Shown here in pieces: positions 2,354 to 58,613 of a stretch of 64,000 nucleotides of DNA; the first letter of the stretch is position 1; every line of letters starts with the position of its first letter. The position numbers were made by a program, and so were the translations under genes. Source of the DNA: Chitinophaga pinensis (GTDB lineage Bacteria > Bacteroidota > Bacteroidia > Chitinophagales > CAIOSU01); NCBI GenBank assembly GCA_945901065.1, contig CAMDKI010000011.1, positions 16,149 to 80,148 of the forward strand. The letters run 5' to 3'. Under the pieces are notes generated by a model. It was not told the DNA's origin. It saw nothing but the letters and a program-made list of their open reading frames with translations, and did not search any database.

Positions 2354-3628
2354 ATGGAAATGCAACTAAATCACCCACTTAGCCTTTCTGATACTTTTGC
2401 GAAGCGTTTTAAGCATATACGCGCTCAAACGGAAGCTATTTGTGCGCCTTTGAAAGTGGAGGATTATGTGGCACAGCCCATCGTGGATGTTAGCCCCCCG
2501 AAATGGCATTTAGCCCATACTACGTGGTTTTTCGAGAATTTCATATTGTTGCCGCACTTGCCTGGCTACAAGGTTTTTGATACCGACTTTAGCTATATGT
2601 TCAATAGTTATTACGAGAGTGTGGGTGAGCGTGTATTGCGCGACCACCGTGGCCACATGACCCGCCCTAGTGTTGTTGAGGTGTATGAGTATAGGCGCTA
2701 TGTAGATGTAGCCATGCTGCAGTTTTTTGATAAAAATGATGAATTGGATGCGGCATTAAAATACACATTGGAGATTGGCTTACAACACGAGCAGCAGCAT
2801 CAAGAGCTGTTGGTTACGGATATTAAATACATACTCGGGCACCACCCATTGCATCCCGTGTACAAGGTAATTGAGTTGCCAGAAACCGGAACTGCACTAC
2901 CGCCGCAATGGCACGAAATAGCCGAAGGAATTTATTATATTGGATACGATGGTAGTGGATTTTGTTTTGATAATGAACAAGGTGTGCATCAAGTTTACCT
3001 GCAACAATGTCGCATCATGAACCGCCCCATAACCAATGCAGAGTACTTGCGGTTTATGGAAGATGGAGGTTATGCCAATCACCAATGGTGGTTTGCTGAT
3101 GCCTGGGGATGGCTAAGCGAAATGGGCATAAAAGCCCCACACTATTGGGAGCAACATAACGGCCAATGGTACCAATACCAATTGGATGGCTTAAAACCCA
3201 TTGACCCAAATGCACCCGTAACCCACGTAAGTATGTATGAGGCTGCGGCCTATGCCATGTGGGCCGGCAAGCGCCTACCTACCGAACAGGAATGGGAAGT
3301 AGCTGCCAAAACATTGCAGCCTGGAGGGCCTAGTGAGGGCAACTTCCTAGAGCAAAGTAAATTTCAATCGTTACCTACCCAAGAAAATAGCCAATGGTAT
3401 GGCGATGTTTGGGAATGGACCAACAGCGCCTACCTGCCTTACCCCTATTACCAGCGGCCCGATGGTGCGCTGGGCGAGTACAATGGTAAGTTTATGATTA
3501 ACCAAATGGTATTGCGCGGCGGCTCTTGTTCTACGCCACAAAGCCACATTAGGCCTACTTACCGTAACTTCTTTCAGCCGGATAAAAGGTGGCAGTTTAC
3601 GGGTTTTCGTTTGGCGGAGCACGTTTAG
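2354..3628 (+). CDS. egtB: EgtB-like sulfoxide synthase (DinB-like N-domain plus FGE-sulfatase-like C-domain)
   Basis: 424 aa. The motifs WHLAHTTWFFENF and LQHEQQHQELL fit a DinB-type metal site. The C-terminal motifs RLPTEQEWEVAA, GDVWEWTNS and VLRGGSCSTP fit an FGE-sulfatase fold. No egtD-like methyltransferase is adjacent. Confidence 0.75.
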   Translation: MEMQLNHPLSLSDTFAKRFKHIRAQTEAICAPLKVEDYVAQPIVDVSPPKWHLAHTTWFFENFILLPHLPGYKVFDTDFSYMFNSYYESVGERVLRDHRGHMTRPSVVEVYEYRRYVDVAMLQFFDKNDELDAALKYTLEIGLQHEQQHQELLVTDIKYILGHHPLHPVYKVIELPETGTALPPQWHEIAEGIYYIGYDGSGFCFDNEQGVHQVYLQQCRIMNRPITNAEYLRFMEDGGYANHQWWFADAWGWLSEMGIKAPHYWEQHNGQWYQYQLDGLKPIDPNAPVTHVSMYEAAAYAMWAGKRLPTEQEWEVAAKTLQPGGPSEGNFLEQSKFQSLPTQENSQWYGDVWEWTNSAYLPYPYYQRPDGALGEYNGKFMINQMVLRGGSCSTPQSHIRPTYRNFFQPDKRWQFTGFRLAEHV

Positions 3629-3631
3629 CAA

Positions 3632-3690
3632 GTACCGAGTAGCAAGTAGCAAGTATTTTTGATTTACGAAGTACGATTTACGATTGAATG
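3632..3690. repeat. Heptamer array, forward arm, paralog of 2111-2169
   Basis: Reads GTACCGA GTAGCAA GTAGCAA GTATTTT TGATTTA CGAAGTA CGATTTA CGATTGA ATG. Positions 3653-3690 match 2132-2169 at 35 of 38 positions. It begins 3 nt after the egtB stop codon. Confidence 0.9.
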
Positions 3691-3808
3691 TTGGTTAATT
3701 TAAGAGTTGTAAATTGCAACAAAACAAGAGTAATAATTTAAAGGCCATAATACCTTCCAATCTCGTAATCAGGACTTTGCAAAACCTATTTAAAATTTTG
3801 ATAAGTAG

Positions 3809-3850
3809 GTCTTGATACTTGATACTCACTACTTGATACTTATTCTGTAT
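3809..3850. repeat. Heptamer array, reverse arm (TACTTGA dialect)
   Basis: Reads GTCTTGA TACTTGA TACTCAC TACTTGA TACTTAT TCTGTAT. Confidence 0.85.
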
Positions 3851-11897: not shown

Positions 11898-12105
11898 CCT
11901 AAAACCCGTGTTTTTACTTGTTTTCAACGGTGCATACCGTTGTTTTGAAGTGGATGTAAAGATACGATAATTAAAGGAATAGCGCGCCCGAAAACCGCAA
12001 TTTTATGAACACGATATACACAAAATGGACACTATTTTTGGGGATAATGGGTGGGTAAAAATGGATTGGGTTGGTGGTGAAGGGGGTAGGTTTTTACGGA
12101 TGCCT

Positions 12106-12233
12106 GTTCGGATTTGCAATCCGAACTATGGAGCTACGGATTTGTAATCCGTTATACTACGGGTATGTTATGTTCTTGGTGTTTCGGCGGATTGAAAATC
12201 CACGGCTCGGTTGCAACGGATTATAAATCCGTC
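12106..12233. repeat. Cluster of four small hairpins sharing the stem CGGATT/AATCCG
   Basis: GTTCGGATT-TGC-AATCCGAAC (12106-12126, 9-bp stem), ACGGATT-TGT-AATCCGT (12136-12152), GGATT-GAA-AATCC (12189-12201) and ACGGATT-ATA-AATCCGT (12217-12233). Confidence 0.85.
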
Positions 12234-12238
12234 GCGGC

Positions 12239-12247
12239 GGGGGGGGG
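12239..12247. repeat. Homopolymeric G9 tract
   Basis: Nine consecutive G directly after the fourth CGGATT hairpin. It is intergenic. Confidence 0.9.
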
Positions 12248-12478
12248 TAATGGAAATTAGCGGTAGTATTTGGGATGCACTGCACTAGTGGTCGGTGCAT
12301 CCTTAAATCTTCACAAACACAATAAATTGAAAATCAATAAGTTACAAAATAAAAAGCGAACAACTCACACATAATCAATCACTTACATTTTAATAGGCAA
12401 ACACGCTCAAACTCGCGCCAATAAACGATTCGTGGACGACAAAACTCGATTAATTCAGGTTCAGCACTTCACCGGTGC

Positions 12479-12537
12479 AACCACCCCCAACCCCTCCTTT
12501 TTCTAGGCTGCACAGGCTTGGCGAAGGAGGGGAGCTG
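12479..12537. repeat. CCTCC/GGAGG hairpin repeat, copy 2 (forward)
   Basis: AACCACCCCCAACCCCTCCTTT - 23-nt loop - AAGGAGGGGAGCTG. Confidence 0.8.
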
Positions 12538-12640
12538 TCAAGGGCACAGCCTTAACTAACTTCATCAGGACCTTAAAATCCTATACTTTAACATCGAAAA
12601 TAGTAATTTGCAATAGTGCCCCTATATGTCATAAAGTTGC

Positions 12641-12719
12641 CAGCTCCCCTCCCTGCCTACGGCAGGCAGGCTTCGAATGGCCTTTTTGCGCGCTGCGAAA
12701 GGAGGGGTTGGGGGTGGTT
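12641..12719. repeat. CCTCC/GGAGG hairpin repeat, copy 3 (reverse orientation)
   Basis: CAGCTCCCCTCC ... AAAGGAGGGGTTGGGGGTGGTT. Its 22-nt end is the exact reverse complement of 12479-12500. It has an inner CCTGCC-TAC-GGCAGG hairpin. Confidence 0.8.
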
Positions 12720-12793
12720 AAACGCAACACAACCCCCGTCAAACCTCACTTCTTGGACGACAAAACTATGCATTAAGAGAAACACCTTTTCCA

Positions 12794-12801
12794 TAATTTT
12801 G
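12794..12801 (+). promoter_or_regulatory. Candidate Bacteroidota -7 promoter box (TAATTTTG) for the TA operon
   Basis: An exact match to TAnnTTTG lies 32 nt upstream of the ATG at 12833. No clear -33 TTTG was seen. It overlaps an inverted copy of the ACGACAAAA motif. Confidence 0.3.
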
Positions 12802-12832
12802 TCGTTAAATGATAGAATCATTAACTTAGAGT

Positions 12833-13084
12833 ATGGCTCATATCAAAATAGCAGAAACCAAGGAACATATCCATCAATTGATTGATCAATTGAACGATCC
12901 TGATTTGCTTGACCTGTATTTAAAACTGCTGTTAAAACATGTCCAATTGGCAACGTTTGAACCCACTGCAGATGAAATTCAAGCTATTGAAGAAGGCTTA
13001 GACTCCATCAAAAAACACGGCACGGTTTCGCATGAAGATGCTGTGGCTAGGTTGCGCAGTAAGTATCCTAATTTGATACTGTAA
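12833..13084 (+). CDS. Putative antitoxin of a type II TA pair
   Basis: 83 aa, acidic and helical. Its stop TAA overlaps the toxin ATG (TAATG at 13082-13086). I recognise no domain; the call rests on pairing with the ParE/RelE-like ORF. Confidence 0.6.
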   Translation: MAHIKIAETKEHIHQLIDQLNDPDLLDLYLKLLLKHVQLATFEPTADEIQAIEEGLDSIKKHGTVSHEDAVARLRSKYPNLIL

Positions 13085-13377
13085 TGAAAGCAATTCGATG
13101 GTCAGAACAGGCTATTGAAGATTACGACCGTAATCTGGAGTACCTCCAAATTGAGTGGACCGAACGCGAAGAAATCATCTTCAACTTAAAAGTAGCCAAA
13201 ACCCTGAGGAACATATCTACAATGCCAGAATTATACCCAGTGGCCATTATCGGTTCAACGATCGTAAGAAAAGCAGTGATAACCACACAAATCACCCTGT
13301 ACTACCTTGTTTTAGAGGACCAAATTCTGCTGGTGAGGTTCAAAAACAACTTTCAAGCACCCAATAGCGGATTGTAA
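13084..13377 (+). CDS. ParE/RelE-family type II toxin
   Basis: 97 aa. The pattern MKAIRWSEQAIEDYDRNLEYL...ITLYYLVLEDQILLVRF matches the ParE/RelE plasmid-stabilisation toxin layout. Confidence 0.7.
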   Translation: MKAIRWSEQAIEDYDRNLEYLQIEWTEREEIIFNLKVAKTLRNISTMPELYPVAIIGSTIVRKAVITTQITLYYLVLEDQILLVRFKNNFQAPNSGL

Positions 13378-13464
13378 CTCACAAACCCACGCTACCAAAA
13401 CCCACCCTCCAAGGTTATCAACACCACACCAGTATTTCCCCCAAACTAAAACCCATACTTTCAA

Positions 13465-13472
13465 TACTTTTG
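13465..13472 (+). promoter_or_regulatory. Candidate -7 promoter box (TACTTTTG) for the FMN reductase/SBP genes
   Basis: An exact match to TAnnTTTG lies 31 nt upstream of the ATG at 13503. No clear -33 element was seen. Confidence 0.3.
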
Positions 13473-13502
13473 TAATTACAATAGTACTTCGTAAATAGAA
13501 CC

Positions 13503-14033: not shown

Positions 14034-15701
14034 ATGACCAAAACTATATTTAACCGCAACAATACCTCAATCGTACATCGTACATCGTACATCGTACATT
14101 ACGTTGTAGTAGCGTTAATCATTGTATTGGCGACTAGTTGCGGCGGTGACGGCAAAACAACGACCAACAACACTTTCAAGTTTAACATGACCAGCGGCGT
14201 AACCTCGCTAGATCCAGCCTTTGCCCGCGACCAAAGTAATATTTGGATGGTGAATGCCATGTTCAACGGGCTATTGCAGTTTGACGAACTATTGAACCTA
14301 CAGCCGTGCCTAGCCAAAAGCTGGACTATTAGTGAAGATGCACTGACCTATACCTTCGCCCTACGAAACGATGTGTACTTTCATAATGATGAAGTATTTG
14401 GCGGCAATAAACGAAAACTAACGGCAGCCGATGTTGCATATACCTTCAACCGACTGATTGACCCTAACACTGCCTCGCCGGGTGCGTGGATATTCAATGG
14501 CCGGATAGCAGAAAACAACCCTTTTGAAGCGCTTAACGATAGTACTTTTGTAATGCGCTTAAAGGAGCCCTTTGGCCCGATGCTGAGCCTGCTGACGTTA
14601 CAATACACCTATATAGTGCCCAAAGAGGCCACCGAGAAATACGGCAAGGAGTTTAGGTTGCATCCGGTGGGCACCGGGCCTTTTATGCTGAAAATGTGGG
14701 CAGAGGGCAACCAGTTGGTAATGCAAAAGAACCCTGACTACTTTGAGCGCGAAGGCGACCAGCAACTACCTTATCTGGATAATGTGCAGGTTTATTTCAT
14801 CCAGAACAAATACTCGGAATACTTAGAGTTTAATCAAGGCGGCTTGGACTTTATAAGCAGTGTGGATGCCACCACCGTAAACGAACTATTGGCTACCGAT
14901 GGCGGCCTAAAGCCTGAGCATAACGGCAAAATGACCTTGTACAAAATACCTTACCTCAATAGCGAATACTTGGGTTTTCTGTTGGATGAAACCAGCCCCG
15001 ATGCCAATAAGGCACTGCTAAACAAGCAGGTGCGCCAAGCCATTAACTACGGTTTCAACCGCAAGGAGATGCTGCAATACCTGCGCAACAGCGTTGGGCG
15101 CCCAGCCAATGCAGGCTTTGTGCCGTATGGCTTGCCTTCGTTTGACGAAAAAGCCACCCCCGGCTATAGCTATGATGTGGCTAAGGCTAAGCAACTGCTA
15201 GCCGAAGCGGGCTACCCAGGTGGCAAAGGCTTGCCTGCCATTAAGCTGCTTACCAACCCCACTTATAAAGACATAGCCGAGTACCTGCAAAAGCAATTGG
15301 CCGAAATCGGTATCAATATTGACGTAGAGATAGTGCAGCCATCGCTGCTGCGCGACCAAATGCTGAAAAGCAAAGCCACCTTTTTCCGCGGCTCATGGAT
15401 AGCTGACTACCCAGATGCGGAGAGCTTTTTATCGGTGTTTTATGGCAATGTGCCTGCCCCGCCCAACTATACCCGTTTCCGTAATGCGGAGTTTGACAGT
15501 CTGTACACCCTTTCGCTAAAAGAAACCGACCAAACCAAACGCTTTGCACTGTACCAAGCCCTTGACCGTATTGTAATTGAGGAAGCACCCATTGTGCCGC
15601 TATACTATGACGAGGTGCTGCGCTTTGTGCGCACTGGCGTAACAGGCCTAGAGCCCAATGCCATGAACTTGTTGGATTTGAAAAGGGTAAAGGTAAAGTA
15701 A
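14034..15701 (+). CDS. ABC transporter substrate-binding lipoprotein (family 5, peptide/nickel type)
   Basis: 555 aa. Lipobox LATSC follows a long n-region, and the rest resembles SBP_bac_5 throughout (e.g. GTGPFML, NPDYF). No permease or ATPase is adjacent. The n-region is encoded by a perfect 4x heptamer repeat (14071-14098). Confidence 0.85.
   Translation: MTKTIFNRNNTSIVHRTSYIVHYVVVALIIVLATSCGGDGKTTTNNTFKFNMTSGVTSLDPAFARDQSNIWMVNAMFNGLLQFDELLNLQPCLAKSWTISEDALTYTFALRNDVYFHNDEVFGGNKRKLTAADVAYTFNRLIDPNTASPGAWIFNGRIAENNPFEALNDSTFVMRLKEPFGPMLSLLTLQYTYIVPKEATEKYGKEFRLHPVGTGPFMLKMWAEGNQLVMQKNPDYFEREGDQQLPYLDNVQVYFIQNKYSEYLEFNQGGLDFISSVDATTVNELLATDGGLKPEHNGKMTLYKIPYLNSEYLGFLLDETSPDANKALLNKQVRQAINYGFNRKEMLQYLRNSVGRPANAGFVPYGLPSFDEKATPGYSYDVAKAKQLLAEAGYPGGKGLPAIKLLTNPTYKDIAEYLQKQLAEIGINIDVEIVQPSLLRDQMLKSKATFFRGSWIADYPDAESFLSVFYGNVPAPPNYTRFRNAEFDSLYTLSLKETDQTKRFALYQALDRIVIEEAPIVPLYYDEVLRFVRTGVTGLEPNAMNLLDLKRVKVK
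14071..14098 (+). repeat. Perfect (TCGTACA)x4 heptamer repeat inside the 5' end of the SBP lipoprotein CDS
   Basis: Four identical contiguous units followed by a degenerate TTACGTT. They encode part of the signal-peptide n-region (SIVHRTSYIVHY). Confidence 0.95.
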
Positions 15702-16099: not shown

Positions 16100-16140
16100 A
16101 GCTCCTCCCCATTTTTCAGGGGGAGGTTGGGAGGGGGTAA
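16100..16140. repeat. CCTCC/GGAGG hairpin repeat, copy 4
   Basis: AGCTCCTCCCC-ATTTTTCAG-GGGGAGGTTGGGAGGGGGTAA, between the convergent GNAT and AhpD-like genes. Confidence 0.8.
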
Positions 16141-25558: not shown

Positions 25559-25574
25559 GTTTTGTTAGCATTAA

Positions 25575-25609
25575 GTATCAAGTACCAAGTATCAAGTATC
25601 AAGATAACC
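25575..25609. repeat. Heptamer array, forward arm (GTATCAA dialect), 5 units
   Basis: Reads GTATCAA GTACCAA GTATCAA GTATCAA GATAACC, 17 nt after the ABC ATPase stop. Confidence 0.9.
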
Positions 25610-25634
25610 TATTTCCATAGCAAATGTGAAAACA

Positions 25635-25675
25635 AAAGCCTCGAAACATATCATGTTCCGAGGCTTTAATTTATT
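25635..25675. terminator. Bidirectional rho-independent terminator between ABC ATPase gene and queA
   Basis: A 15-bp stem with one mismatch (AAAGCCTCGAAACAT / ATGTTCCGAGGCTTT) and a 3-nt loop, with an A-run before and a T-rich run after. It sits in the spacer of the GTATCAA module. Confidence 0.8.
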
Positions 25676-25690
25676 ATTTACATATCAAGG

Positions 25691-25774
25691 TACTTAATAC
25701 TCAATACTTGATACTTAATACTCAATACTTGATACTTGATACTTGATAATTGATACTTGATACTTGATACTTTA
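25691..25774. repeat. Heptamer array, reverse arm (TACTTGA dialect), 12 units
   Basis: Reads TACTTAA TACTCAA TACTTGA TACTTAA TACTCAA TACTTGA TACTTGA TACTTGA TAATTGA TACTTGA TACTTGA TACTTTA. It abuts the queA stop codon (25775-25777). Confidence 0.95.
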
Positions 25775-50093: not shown

Positions 50094-51332
50094 ATGAGAA
50101 AAGAGTTGATATTTCTTATAGTTACCGTTCTACTTTTGGCTGCCGATTTGTACGCCTTTCAGGCGGTAAAAACTTCTCTTCGTGACAGTTCGGATAATGC
50201 CAAGCGCATTGGCTACATCATTTTCTGGAGTTTTACGGTCATTACCGTAGCCACTATTCTATCCAACTTTATATACTCAGTAAGAGATTGGCCCAATGGT
50301 TTAAGGTCAATCGTTTTCAGTATTATCGCCCTCGCATTTTTGGGCAAGTTGTTTATTATCGTATTCTTGATTATTGACGATTTCCAGCGGTTTATCCGAT
50401 GGATAGCTTCAATGGTTTCTGCTCCTGCAGATGGTGGACCTACCAATATAAGCAGGGCTAAATTTTTAAGCCAAACAGGTATTGTGGTCGCTACCGTGCC
50501 GTTAATTGCTGGCATGTGGGGTATATTTAAAGGCGCACACGATTATACGATTCACCGCATAAAAGTTACCTTGCCCAACCTGCCCGATGCATTTAATGGG
50601 TTGAAAATTGTTCAACTATCGGATATACATGCTGGTAGTTTCCCTTCGGCTAACCCCTTGAAGCTTGCAGTGGATATGGTAAACAAAGAAAATGCCGATT
50701 TGCTTTTCTTTACGGGCGACCTAGTAAACAATATTACCGAAGAGGTTTTGCCTTATGTTTCGGTTTTTGGGCAAATGAATGCCAAAATGGGCAAATACTC
50801 GGTGTTTGGCAACCATGATTATGGCGACTACGTAGGATGGGATTCGAAAGAAGCTAAACTGCAGAACATTGAAAACCTTAAAAAGGCACATGGAGATATG
50901 GGTTGGCGCTTGCTTTGGGATGAGCACGTTTACCTTGAAAAAGATGGACAACAAATAGCCCTTATTGGTGTGCAGAATTGCAGCGGCACCAAGAGTTTCC
51001 ATACTTATGGCGACCTAGACAAAGCCTACAAAGGCTGCGAGGCGCCCGTAAAACTCTTATTATCTCACGACCCCACTTTCTGGGATGCCAAAATACGCGA
51101 CTTTGAAGACATCGACATCACTTTTGCTGGCCACACGCATGGTGCGCAATTTGGTATTGAATGGGGTAAAGTACGCTGGAGCCCAGCACAGTATATTTAC
51201 AAGCAATGGGCTGGCTTGTACCAAAAAGGCAAACAATACATCTACGTAAACCGTGGCTTTGGCTACCTAGGCTTCCCGGGCCGAATAGGTATATTGCCCG
51301 AGATTACGGTAATGACGTTGGTGAAAGAATAG
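50094..51332 (+). CDS. Membrane-anchored metallophosphoesterase
   Basis: ATG at 50094. N-terminal TM helices are followed by QLSDIHAG, FFTGDLVNN, GNHDYG and GHTHGAQ. Confidence 0.8.
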   Translation: MRKELIFLIVTVLLLAADLYAFQAVKTSLRDSSDNAKRIGYIIFWSFTVITVATILSNFIYSVRDWPNGLRSIVFSIIALAFLGKLFIIVFLIIDDFQRFIRWIASMVSAPADGGPTNISRAKFLSQTGIVVATVPLIAGMWGIFKGAHDYTIHRIKVTLPNLPDAFNGLKIVQLSDIHAGSFPSANPLKLAVDMVNKENADLLFFTGDLVNNITEEVLPYVSVFGQMNAKMGKYSVFGNHDYGDYVGWDSKEAKLQNIENLKKAHGDMGWRLLWDEHVYLEKDGQQIALIGVQNCSGTKSFHTYGDLDKAYKGCEAPVKLLLSHDPTFWDAKIRDFEDIDITFAGHTHGAQFGIEWGKVRWSPAQYIYKQWAGLYQKGKQYIYVNRGFGYLGFPGRIGILPEITVMTLVKE

Positions 51333-51335
51333 GTC

Positions 51336-51426
51336 AATTTGAAAATGAGGTAATTTGATAATTTGGAAATGAAAAGACATTAAAAAAGTCATTTTCAAAT
51401 TCGCACATTTTCAAATTTTCAAATTA
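51336..51426. repeat. Octamer-array module (AATTTGAA dialect): two inverted arms with 12-nt spacer
   Basis: The forward arm reads AATTTGAA AATGAGGT AATTTGAT AATTTGGA AATGAAAA (51336-51375). The reverse arm 51388-51426 is the complement of AATTTGAA AATTTGAA AATGTGCG AATTTGAA AATGAC. It lies between convergent genes and overlaps the E2 stop codon. Confidence 0.9.
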
Positions 51427-52680
51427 AACAAGCATCCTCACTGGGTCTTCCAACAACGACTTGAAGGTTTGAAGGAACTGAGCACCTGTGGCACCATCCA
51501 CTACACGGTGATCGCAAGATAGAGTAACTTTCATAATAAGCTCATGGCGCAGCTCGCCATCATCATCCATTACTAAGCGCTTACTGATACCGCCAACGGC
51601 CAATATACATGCATCGGGTGGATTAATTATGGCTGTAAACTCCTCAATACCAAACATACCCAAATTGGAGATGGTGAAGGTATTGCCCTGCATTTCGGCA
51701 GGCTGTAGTTTTTTGTCTTTTGCTTTGCCAGCTAGTTCCCTTACTTCGGCAGCAATGTGAGATAGACCTTTGTTATCGGCAAAACGGATAACTGGCACCA
51801 ACAATCCTTCCTCAACGGCCACGGCTACACCAATATGGATGTGGTGGTTGTAACGTATTTTATCGCCCAACCAAGAGCTGTTTACTTTCGGGTGGCGACG
51901 CAAAGCAGCAGCAGCGGCTTTCAATACCAAATCATTGAACGATATTTTCACTGGTGAGAAAGCGTTCAATCCTTCGCGGGCAGCGGTGGCCTTATCCATG
52001 TTTATCTCCATGGTAAGGTAAAAGTGGGGGGCACTGAATTTGCTCTCGCCCAAGCGCTTCGCTATGGTTTTGCGCATTTGCGATACCGTTACCTCTTCAT
52101 AGCTCTCCACTCCTACCACAGCAGGCAGTTGCACCGATTGCTGCGCAGGTTCGGCTTTTTTGGCGGCTGGTTGGTATTGTTCCACATCACGTTTCACAAT
52201 ACGTCCATCATCGCCACTACCTTTTAGATCGCTTACACTTATACCTTTATCCTCAGCTATTTTACGGGCCAATGGCGATATTTTCAAGCGACTATCATCG
52301 GCCACTGGCTCTGGTGCTATTGGCTCAGGTTTTGCTTCTTCTTGAGGCTTATCTTCTTGCTGTGCCGCTGGTTTAGCCTCCTCCTTCTCCGTATTAGTAT
52401 CGCTCCCCTTTTCCGAGCCTAACAATGGTTTATAGTCTTCGCCTTTTTTACCCACGATGGCCAAAATACCATTTACCTGCACCGCCGCGCCAGCTTCAAC
52501 GCCAATGTACAATAGCACACCTTCTTGGTAGCTTTCTAGCTCCATGGTTGCTTTATCGGTTTCCACTTCGGCCAATAGGTCGCCCGACTTTACATTGTCG
52601 CCAACCTTTTTGTGCCAAGCCACTATCACCCCTTCTTCCATCGTATCGCTCATGCGCGGCATTCGAATCACTTCAGCCAT
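51424..52680 (-). CDS. 2-oxoacid (pyruvate) dehydrogenase complex E2 dihydrolipoamide acyltransferase
   Basis: ATG at 52680 (MAEVIRMPRMSDTMEEG). It has a lipoyl site VETDKATMELES, an Ala/Pro/Glu linker, an E3-binding segment (ISPLARKIA) and the catalytic motif DHRVVDG. The ORF-track extension to 52788 translates an octamer array. Confidence 0.9.
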   Translation of the reverse strand: MAEVIRMPRMSDTMEEGVIVAWHKKVGDNVKSGDLLAEVETDKATMELESYQEGVLLYIGVEAGAAVQVNGILAIVGKKGEDYKPLLGSEKGSDTNTEKEEAKPAAQQEDKPQEEAKPEPIAPEPVADDSRLKISPLARKIAEDKGISVSDLKGSGDDGRIVKRDVEQYQPAAKKAEPAQQSVQLPAVVGVESYEEVTVSQMRKTIAKRLGESKFSAPHFYLTMEINMDKATAAREGLNAFSPVKISFNDLVLKAAAAALRRHPKVNSSWLGDKIRYNHHIHIGVAVAVEEGLLVPVIRFADNKGLSHIAAEVRELAGKAKDKKLQPAEMQGNTFTISNLGMFGIEEFTAIINPPDACILAVGGISKRLVMDDDGELRHELIMKVTLSCDHRVVDGATGAQFLQTFKSLLEDPVRMLV

Positions 52681-52687
52681 AATTATT

Positions 52688-52834
52688 AATTTGAAAATTT
52701 GAAAATTAGGTAATTTGGAAATGGTGTGTTTAGTAATGCAATTAAAAAGGGGAGGTAAACTCAACTTGAAAAGTCTGGACTTAGCCAAAAATCATTTCCA
52801 AATTTTCAAATTTCCTCATTTTCAAATTGAATTA
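52688..52834. repeat. Octamer-array module (AATTTGAA dialect): two inverted arms with ~63-nt spacer
   Basis: The forward arm reads AATTTGAA AATTTGAA AATTAGGT AATTTGGA AATGGTGT (52688-52727). The reverse arm 52791-52834 is the complement of AATTTGAA AATGAGGA AATTTGAA AATTTGGA AATGAT and overlaps the M16 peptidase stop codon. Confidence 0.9.
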
Positions 52835-58552: not shown

Positions 58553-58560
58553 TTTTAACG

Positions 58561-58609
58561 AATTAACCAATAACTAATTAACCAATCAACTATTAACTAA
58601 TCAACCAAA
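58561..58609. repeat. Heptamer array (AACCAAT dialect), 7 units, filling the phnX-like/phnW spacer
   Basis: Reads AATTAAC CAATAAC TAATTAA CCAATCA ACTATTA ACTAATC AACCAAA. Confidence 0.85.
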
Positions 58610-58613
58610 CCGC

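Follow-up and report, generated by a model that had tools for sequence, protein, structure and literature searches.

What are the repeats that flank the gene for the E2 dihydrolipoamide acyltransferase in Chitinophaga pinensis, and why do they lie so close to the stop and start codons of the genes that they separate? The question is raised by a 64,000-nt stretch of contig CAMDKI010000011.1 (hereafter the window, in whose coordinates the positions of arms and modules are given), where the E2 gene has on either side a module, namely two inverted arms of tandem 8-nt units around a loop. The anatomy, polarity, position, distribution, turnover and conservation of these modules, described below, are much firmer than any combined account of them; taken together, the modules appear to act as gene-boundary punctuation for bacteria that do not use Shine-Dalgarno pairing. 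As a fuller explanation we tentatively favour, as plausible, that they are copies of a Bacteroidota-wide dispersed foldback repeat, resembling repetitive extragenic palindromic (REP) sequences and short tandemly repeated repetitive (STRR) sequences, which is filtered by, or used for, Shine-Dalgarno-less translation, by a mechanism that we infer.

Anatomy and grammar of the arms

The genes concerned are ordered as metallophosphoesterase (plus strand), module 1, E2 (minus), module 2 and M16 peptidase (minus), module 1 occupying a spacer between convergent genes and module 2 a spacer between co-directional ones (M16 to E2). The four arms A-D are 36 nt each, that is, four AAT-phased octamers followed by AATG, with the common pattern AATTTGAAAATKWGRWAATNNNNNAATTTGRAAATG; the octamer phasing and the plan of two inverted arms plus spacer, which an earlier note on this DNA had read from the sequence, are thereby confirmed. 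The unit can be written as AATKWGNN, the 11-mer core as AATTTGAAAAT (C-strand form ATTTTCAAATT) and the four-unit arm, as RNA, as (AAUUUGAA)4. In about 1 Mb of loci carrying the core array, analysed together with the window and underlying the counts of this grammar, an odd unit AATnnGnn is often found at position 2 (type X, 43 arms) or at position 3 (type Y, 45 arms). The features of the E2 locus are the following:

51336-51371, plus strand: arm A of module 1, G-strand, type X, AATTTGAA AATGAGGT AATTTGAT AATTTGGA AATG
51372-51389, no strand: loop of module 1, 18 nt, AAAAGACATTAAAAAAGT, without canonical terminator
51390-51425, minus strand: arm B of module 1, type Y, minus-strand reading AATTTGAA AATTTGAA AATGTGCG AATTTGAA AATG
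51424-52680, minus strand: E2 dihydrolipoamide acyltransferase gene, 418 aa, with Biotin_lipoyl, E3_binding and 2-oxoacid_dh domains, outside the repeat system
52688-52723, plus strand: arm C of module 2, type Y, AATTTGAA AATTTGAA AATTAGGT AATTTGGA AATG
52724-52792, no strand: loop of module 2, 69 nt, with a homologue in the related locus L130 at about 85% identity, below that of the arms
52793-52828, minus strand: arm D of module 2, type X, minus-strand reading AATTTGAA AATGAGGA AATTTGAA AATTTGGA AATG

The contact between arms and codons is tight at all four gene edges. The TAG stop of the metallophosphoesterase (51330-51332) is followed by a 3-nt gap and by the start of arm A, and the TAA stop of the M16 peptidase (52832-52834, minus strand) is separated from the start of arm D by another 3 nt, while in arm B the first AA coincide with the final two bases of the TAA stop of E2 (51424-51426); the overlap of both reverse arms with stop codons, as originally proposed, thus holds for E2 (by 2 nt) and fails for M16, whose stop lies 3 nt outside the arm. 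On the minus strand, which is the sense strand of E2, arm C is a G-free leader ending 7 nt before the ATG. That this ATG, at 52680, is the real E2 start is indicated by homologues, which begin with MAEVIRMP, and by its retention in the alignment; the N-terminal extension of the E2 open reading frame (ORF), 52681-52788, thus results from reading through arm C, as the earlier note had supposed.

Allowing one mismatch at most, the window contains the core 22 times, where 4.6 occurrences are expected (a count of 22 was reached in none of 100 shuffles), and 12 of these matches fall in the two modules flanking E2. The arms are complementary to each other to different degrees (A/D 95% over 39 nt, C/D 83%, B/C 81%, A/B 78%), and each of these two modules is predicted to fold, from either strand, as a long imperfect hairpin (z from -3.5 to -4.6), whereas the predicted folding of a lone 36-nt arm amounts to 0 to -5.1 kcal/mol, no better than that of shuffled sequences in three of the four cases. 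Where a spacer of the window has arrays on both sides, the two arms belong to the same dialect, i.e. share one type of unit sequence (6/6).

The order of the arms is invariant: among adjacent arm pairs the G-strand arm precedes the C-strand arm in 48 cases and follows it in none (5'-AATTTGAAAAT…ATTTTCAAATT-3') and, since an inverted repeat reads alike on both strands, this 48:0 order is a real asymmetry. The arms point head-in, the G-containing and C-free strand running 5' to 3' away from the adjacent gene and into the spacer. Their outer ends lie at most 20 nt from a codon boundary in 126 of 198 arms (77 stops and 49 ATGs), a codon boundary being found at the inner end of only 14; the stops at outer ends belong to genes on the same strand (in 22 of the 77 stop-adjoining arms TAA forms the first bases of the array), and the ATGs follow a C-strand arm by 1-20 nt. 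In two short spacers, L041 (nuoD to nuoE) and L136 (a phage gene pair), a lone G-strand arm starts at the stop codon, and the arm-terminal AAAATG appears to provide the start codon of the following gene.

Size and internal plan are equally regular. The core-to-core span is exactly 35 nt (36 with the final G) in 125 of 205 arms and 27 nt in another 50; arms start with (T/C)AATTTGAAAAT and finish with AATG. Because arm length is so sharply fixed, free slippage, one of the processes first suggested, is unlikely. When paired arms could be typed, X was combined with Y in 11 pairs, both window modules included, and two pairs were of the same type; no association of type with the position after a stop or before a start was found, and the termini of X and Y arms have similar flanks. 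Loops range from 9 to 201 nt across loci, and the 18- and 69-nt loops of the window are unrelated to each other. Of the 26 strictly called modules, 20 lie in co-directional, 6 in convergent and none in divergent spacers, an exclusion that a rough gene map of all arrays left unconfirmed; modules are found even within operons (rpsC-rplP, accB-accC, atpA-atpG, iscS-iscU).

Conventional signals were sought in the two modules of the window. No GC-rich stem followed by a U-tract was found in either, the stems being AT-rich, and a search for sigma-70 promoters returned nothing. The Bacteroidetes promoter consists of TTTG at -33, a spacer of 19-21 nt and TAnnTTTG at -7; inspected by eye, the G-strand arm offers TTTG spacings of 5, 13 or 29 nt and a -7 element reading AAAATTTG or GATTTTTG, and this candidate was rejected.

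Turnover, other dialects and distribution

Relatives of the locus, chosen through E2 homologues of 98-82% identity, keep the gene order dnaX-M16-E2-(metallophosphoesterase)-M1, and in every relative that could be read through, the M16-to-E2 spacer is a stop-to-start module (the contig of L131 begins inside this spacer, with its C-arm alone visible). Four dialects nevertheless occupy the same site: AATTTGAA in the window, L130, L132 and L127, TACGA in L121 and L126, ATGTACA in L124 and AGTATCA in L131. L121 is about 97% identical to the window at the DNA level over 5.7 kb: the coding sequences on both sides of its M16-to-E2 spacer align as far as the stop and start codons, the whole spacer between them has been replaced by one of the TACGA dialect, and the neighbouring array-free spacers are conserved. 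The spacer between E2 and the metallophosphoesterase is identical in L121, homologous but diverged in L124 and L132, and in L126, L130 and L131 it holds two non-complementary arrays around a canonical terminator. The bracketing of the E2 gene, to which the earlier note had given weight, therefore looks incidental, as the modules belong to the spacers and either flank carries another dialect in close relatives.

The arms of inherited modules are 85-100% identical, compared with 53-72% for fourfold-degenerate sites of E2, and the loops of such modules are less conserved than the arms. Within single genomes, paralogous modules at different loci share arms and loop ends, the sharing of loop ends being partial (L058 and L078); from these paralogues and from the replacement of a whole spacer at about 97% identity it follows that modules behave as copied, dispersed repeats. 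A local duplication including flanking unique sequence can be ruled out, no unique flank being shared and the dialect being phylum-wide, and no long-range pair of near-identical arms (at least 88% identity) able to bound an autonomous element was found.

The same architecture is built from many other units. Nearly all tandem arrays of at least three copies in the roughly 1 Mb of loci repeat every 7 (190 arrays) or 8 nt (213), 92% of the arrays are intergenic, and on the rough gene map they occur in all spacer classes; heptamer arrays, too, peak at a length of 4-4.5 units. In inverted pairs of other dialects (about 15 unrelated ones) the G-rich arm leads in 15 cases and trails in 2; immediately downstream of stops, arrays are richer in G than in C (57 versus 23), and those just before starts are richer in C than in G (31 versus 10). 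In the window, arrays at gene edges include AGTATCA, TACGA, AACCAAT, GTTGCGG, ATTAGTT and AGACACA, and the EgtB-like gene at 2354-3628 (DinB_2 and FGE-sulfatase domains) has on both flanks modules of the same plan made of 7-nt units; the kinship between the E2 and egtB surroundings, noticed at the outset, thus stands, with several types of 7-8-nt unit in one window.

The modules on the two EgtB flanks (2101-2307 and 3626-3842) are compound, each consisting of a heptamer G-arm (AGTATCA/CAAGTAG), directly adjoined by an arm of some 32 nt common to both (GATTTACGARGTACGATTTACGATTGAATG), and then of an unrelated loop and a CTTGATACT C-arm; the TACGA arm found in them at 2139 and 3661 is also the arm of the M16-to-E2 module in L121 and L126. 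Arrays and an ordinary terminator share one spacer at 25559-25774, between the convergent ABC ATPase and queA genes, where a canonical, GC-rich terminator hairpin (25630-25672) stands between AAGTATC arrays, and likewise in L126 and L130. The 61-nt spacer between the HAD hydrolase and aminotransferase genes (58553-58613) is, from stop to ATG, a G-poor AACCAAT/AACTAAT array without partner arm, resembling a CAA-rich unstructured leader. A perfect 4.3-copy ATCGTAC array (14067-14099) falls within the N-terminus called for an SBP_bac_5 lipoprotein (MTKTIFNRNNTSIVHRTSYIVHYVVVALIIVLATSC), upstream of its hydrophobic signal segment and lipobox; it may be translated, or the start of the lipoprotein may have been mis-called.

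A distinct type of repeat is represented by four small hairpins CGGATT(N5-6)AATCCG at 12100-12240, in a gene-poor stretch of 1.5 kb (11928-13502). A perfect 22-nt inverted repeat, AACCACCCCCAACCCCTCCTTT and its complement, is found at 12479-12500/12698-12719, 197 nt apart; together with the GGAGGGG/CCCCTCC motifs near it and at 16100-16140, it looks like a separate, GC-rich repeat family.

A scan of species-representative genomes for the pattern core-N5-core detected the array in at least 119 genome stretches, and 117 of 119 among the matches listed are from Bacteroidota, spanning six classes (Chitinophagia, Flavobacteriia, Bacteroidia, Cytophagia, Sphingobacteriia and Saprospiria) and including isolate genomes (e.g., Chryseobacterium sp. 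E1 CP078104, Niastella caeni and Pinibacter spp.). The two exceptions among the matches listed are metagenome-assembled genomes, L034 and L087, labelled Vicinamibacterales and Caulobacter; L034 is GC-rich and has one short C-strand arm between two genes, and both could represent either a binning error or a rare occurrence beyond Bacteroidota. The core array is also present in 20 viral contigs, where mostly single arms are seen and where, in phage-like contigs, the placement from stop to ATG recurs. One of these, the IMG/VR phage-like contig L148, has at about 2180-2320 an AGTTACA array after a stop, then a AATTTGAA-type C-arm with an ATG 11 nt further on, and elsewhere a second C-arm 7 nt ahead of another ATG. 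The lineage-specific arm gave two matches in the JGI metagenomes, one being the orthologous locus. The window itself belongs to a metagenome-assembled genome of Chitinophagales-like character.

Rfam yielded no match at gathering score across the whole window and only chance-level microRNA and small nucleolar RNA matches at the modules; a literature search on the arm sequence turned up no relevant paper, and nothing was found in the searchable literature that corresponds to the octamers of the AATTTGAA family, to the rule of polarity, to arms on a 36-nt plan or to the same-site turnover of dialects. The earlier proposal of a general mechanism instead of one selfish element agrees with a single, phylum-wide architecture served by many interchangeable sequences; the contrast had been drawn too sharply, since modules are also copied.

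A link to translation and the rival accounts

Bacteroidetes do without Shine-Dalgarno pairing, and initiation is tuned by structure and by key upstream bases (PMC6847099, PMC3155529); AUG is depleted near true starts (PMC6847099), and in Prevotella a structure of -5.2 kcal/mol near the start lowers expression fivefold (PMC3155529). A G-free array, in which neither AUG, GUG, UUG nor strong structure is possible, is therefore a safe leader. According to the explanation that we favour, the RNA following a stop codon would be a C-free array, and the RNA preceding a start codon a G-free, unstructured array devoid of start codons; when both arms are co-transcribed they would form a long, imperfect, AU-rich hairpin whose foot is set 0-5 nt past the stop codon and about 5-10 nt ahead of the next AUG. 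A lone G-free arm would serve as a good leader in Shine-Dalgarno-less bacteria; the paired form would hide this leader until the foot of the stem is opened by a ribosome terminating at the upstream stop, and such opening might couple the translation of the two genes. The hairpin might in addition protect and stabilise the 3' end and, between convergent genes, a module could act as a two-way 3' hairpin. Placing the G-rich arm first might also avoid exposing naked RNA that is rich in C and poor in G, on which Rho could load. The dialects would be repeat families, whose modules are copied or replaced between spacers in a manner resembling REPIN dynamics or those of miniature inverted-repeat transposable elements (MITEs), with selection at the level of translation setting the orientation and position of the copies that survive.

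Several observations weigh against this explanation. An arm is a poorer complement of its partner than of arms from unrelated loci (29.1 versus 30.0 of 36; permutation p ~0.003), and the mismatches between partners are not biased toward G.U pairs in the transcribed strand. Covariation thus lends no support to an RNA helix under selection, and compensatory evolution of the helix, considered as a candidate, was not seen in either comparison. The odd units of partner arms are staggered, as the excess of X+Y pairs implies; pairs of non-complementary dialects exist (L126, L130, L131, L148); the rough gene map places arrays in divergent spacers as well; neither a target-site duplication nor a mobilising enzyme was found; and the rationale for a C-free trailer is speculative. 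Finally, about half of the arms are unpaired and, given the single arms of phages as well, the arm at a gene edge is probably the basic unit; it may be the arm, then, and not the hairpin, that is elementary, the same-dialect pair being its commonest arrangement.

The best surviving rival, possible though unlikely, regards the modules as a selfish, non-autonomous family of foldback or MITE-like elements, whose arms would be terminal inverted repeats made of transposase-binding subrepeats, with X and Y as left and right ends, and whose location would be set by where insertion is tolerated. The fixed arm length of 36 nt with its defined outer terminus, the chirality of X+Y pairs, partner arms of one dialect that are not mutual complements, the paralogous modules within a genome, the replacement between near-identical strains and the nested or compound arms (TACGA inside the AGTATCA modules at 2139 and 3661, and again in L121) would all be expected of such a family. 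It has, however, no visible target-site duplication, no linked transposase and loops that are mostly unrelated between copies; a G-to-C polarity common to about 15 unrelated dialects would need an additional selective filter; and insertion alone sits uneasily with arms that directly adjoin stop codons in spacers containing other sequence as well (L126, L130), with a single 11-mer core kept throughout a phylum, with arms conserved above neutral sites and with single arms in compact phage genomes.

A broader version of the favoured explanation, which we consider rather unlikely, is that Bacteroidota and their phages share a general punctuation system, in which a dedicated mechanism places polar arrays, about 4.5 units long, at the borders of coding regions and exchanges them there, to be read by Shine-Dalgarno-less ribosomes. 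The arrays would be installed by templated addition or by a family of array-specific enzymes, and a hairpin reaching from stop to start might let the terminating ribosome cross the stem to the next AUG, in a way similar to ribosome shunting. Should such a system exist, it would provide the first function for STRR-type heptamer repeats, unexplained since 1990.

It is improbable that the modules are instead binding-site arrays, read in the DNA by a conserved nucleoid-associated or topology protein of Bacteroidota and marking both edges of a spacer symmetrically, as E. coli bacterial interspersed mosaic elements (BIMEs) are bound by gyrase and IHF. A rule symmetric in the DNA and independent of gene orientation, the missing strand-specific G.U signal, four phased 8-bp subsites in arms of fixed length, a phylum-wide 11-mer and the presence of arrays in all spacer classes would suit such a protein; that unrelated dialects are interchangeable at one site would call for many proteins, or for none, the tight spacing to stops and starts is a feature on the scale of translation, and we know of no candidate protein.

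More improbable is the templated addition or repair of repeats, whereby a break in the spacer would have units added, telomere-like, at each 3' end before being rejoined, leaving two head-in arms of one dialect around what remains of the spacer DNA. No enzyme or template for such a process is known to us from bacteria, and the conservation of arms in vertically inherited modules, as well as paralogues sharing loop ends, is explained equally well or better by the copying of existing modules, even though the process would explain why the G-strand enters the spacer from both sides, why both arms are of one dialect without exact complementarity, why length is limited to about 4.5 units, why loops are unrelated and how a whole spacer is replaced between strains about 97% identical. 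The usual slippage of microsatellites in AT-rich spacers, or simple intrinsic terminators, for which it can be said that the units are short tandem repeats and that a hairpin terminator is expected between convergent genes as at module 1, is largely refuted and hardly credible in view of arm lengths that are sharply peaked and not geometric, strict polarity, an identical 36-nt architecture in six classes, stems that are not GC-rich and lack a U-tract, modules inside essential operons and canonical terminators coexisting within loops (25630-25672, L126, L130).

The arrays also have practical consequences: they inflate ORF calls, as in the false N-terminal extension of E2 and in a 456-aa homologue, they break assemblies, and they would be useful parts, or hazards, for the design of gene expression in Bacteroidota.

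Relation to known repeat systems

Short intergenic tandem arrays of 7-8 nt have been noted in bacteria for decades without an accepted function; for those of a major phylum a precise grammar can now be given, covering orientation, arm length, codon contact, exchange of dialects and conservation.

Some familiar classes are set apart by single features. The two modules at E2 do not provide the GC-rich stem and U-tract of an intrinsic terminator; contingency-locus microsatellites are disfavoured by the peak of arm length at 4-4.5 units and by the housekeeping nature of the flanking genes, and integron attC sites by the synteny of the flanking core genes across relatives and by arms without GTTRRRY cores.

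The likeness to REP, BIME and REPIN sequences is closer, all of these being high-copy extragenic repeats, often arranged as inverted pairs or long hairpins, found in 3' flanks and operons and near stops, variable between lineages and linked to mRNA stability; the modules share with them the extragenic location (92% intergenic), the inverted pairs (48) and the association with 3' ends (77 arms near stops). However, a REP unit is a palindrome of 20-40 nt with a GTAG or CGTC head (PMC3733652), and the single arms have neither the palindrome nor the terminal tetranucleotide; moreover, REP sequences are tied to a RAYT transposase, whereas the modules consist of unstructured single arms of tandem octamers with a phylum-wide core. 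With MITEs the modules have in common terminal inverted arms (within a module, 78-83% complementary) that enclose a middle part, short or variable, and an intergenic, dispersed occurrence; the Correia element of Neisseria is a MITE, and the arms of eukaryotic Foldback elements are themselves built of tandem subrepeats. The differences are that one polarity is common to many unrelated unit sequences, and that neither a conserved interior nor an autonomous partner was found for the modules; their flanks have no direct repeat, with T preferred at -1, and the arm ends could hide a palindromic TA/AATT duplication.

The nearest relatives are arrays of heptamers. Direct repeats of TAACTGA and other heptamers ahead of start codons have been described in Beggiatoaceae, cyanobacteria and five Bacteroidetes (MacGregor 2015, PMC4679880); these, too, are intergenic 7-nt arrays placed few nucleotides from starts without a canonical ribosome-binding site, and one Bacteroidetes set lies reversed just after a stop codon, a post-transcriptional role having been proposed (PMC4679880). 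That study deals with a single heptamer in direct repeats, without inverted arms, polarity, AATTTGAA octamers or swapping of dialects (PMC4679880).

The STRR heptamers of cyanobacteria (e.g., between hupS and hupL) are likewise short tandem intergenic units able to form hairpins between co-transcribed genes; they have been proposed to act in the stability of transcripts, in the coupling of translation or in termination, their function not being established (PMC2670836). They differ from the modules in phylum and sequence, and the unit at the E2 locus is of 8 nt. Tandem units pairing as inverted intergenic arrays, the hallmark of the STRR type, are found here with 8-nt units at E2 and with 7-nt units elsewhere in the window, which makes the Bacteroidota modules a putative functional analogue of STRR hairpin arrays. 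In 1995 Jackman and Mulligan reportedly called the nif spacers of closely related cyanobacteria "variable but structured"; to our knowledge, the G-to-C polarity, the 4.5-unit arm, the X/Y rule, the contact with stops and starts and a phylum-wide core have not been described for STRRs.

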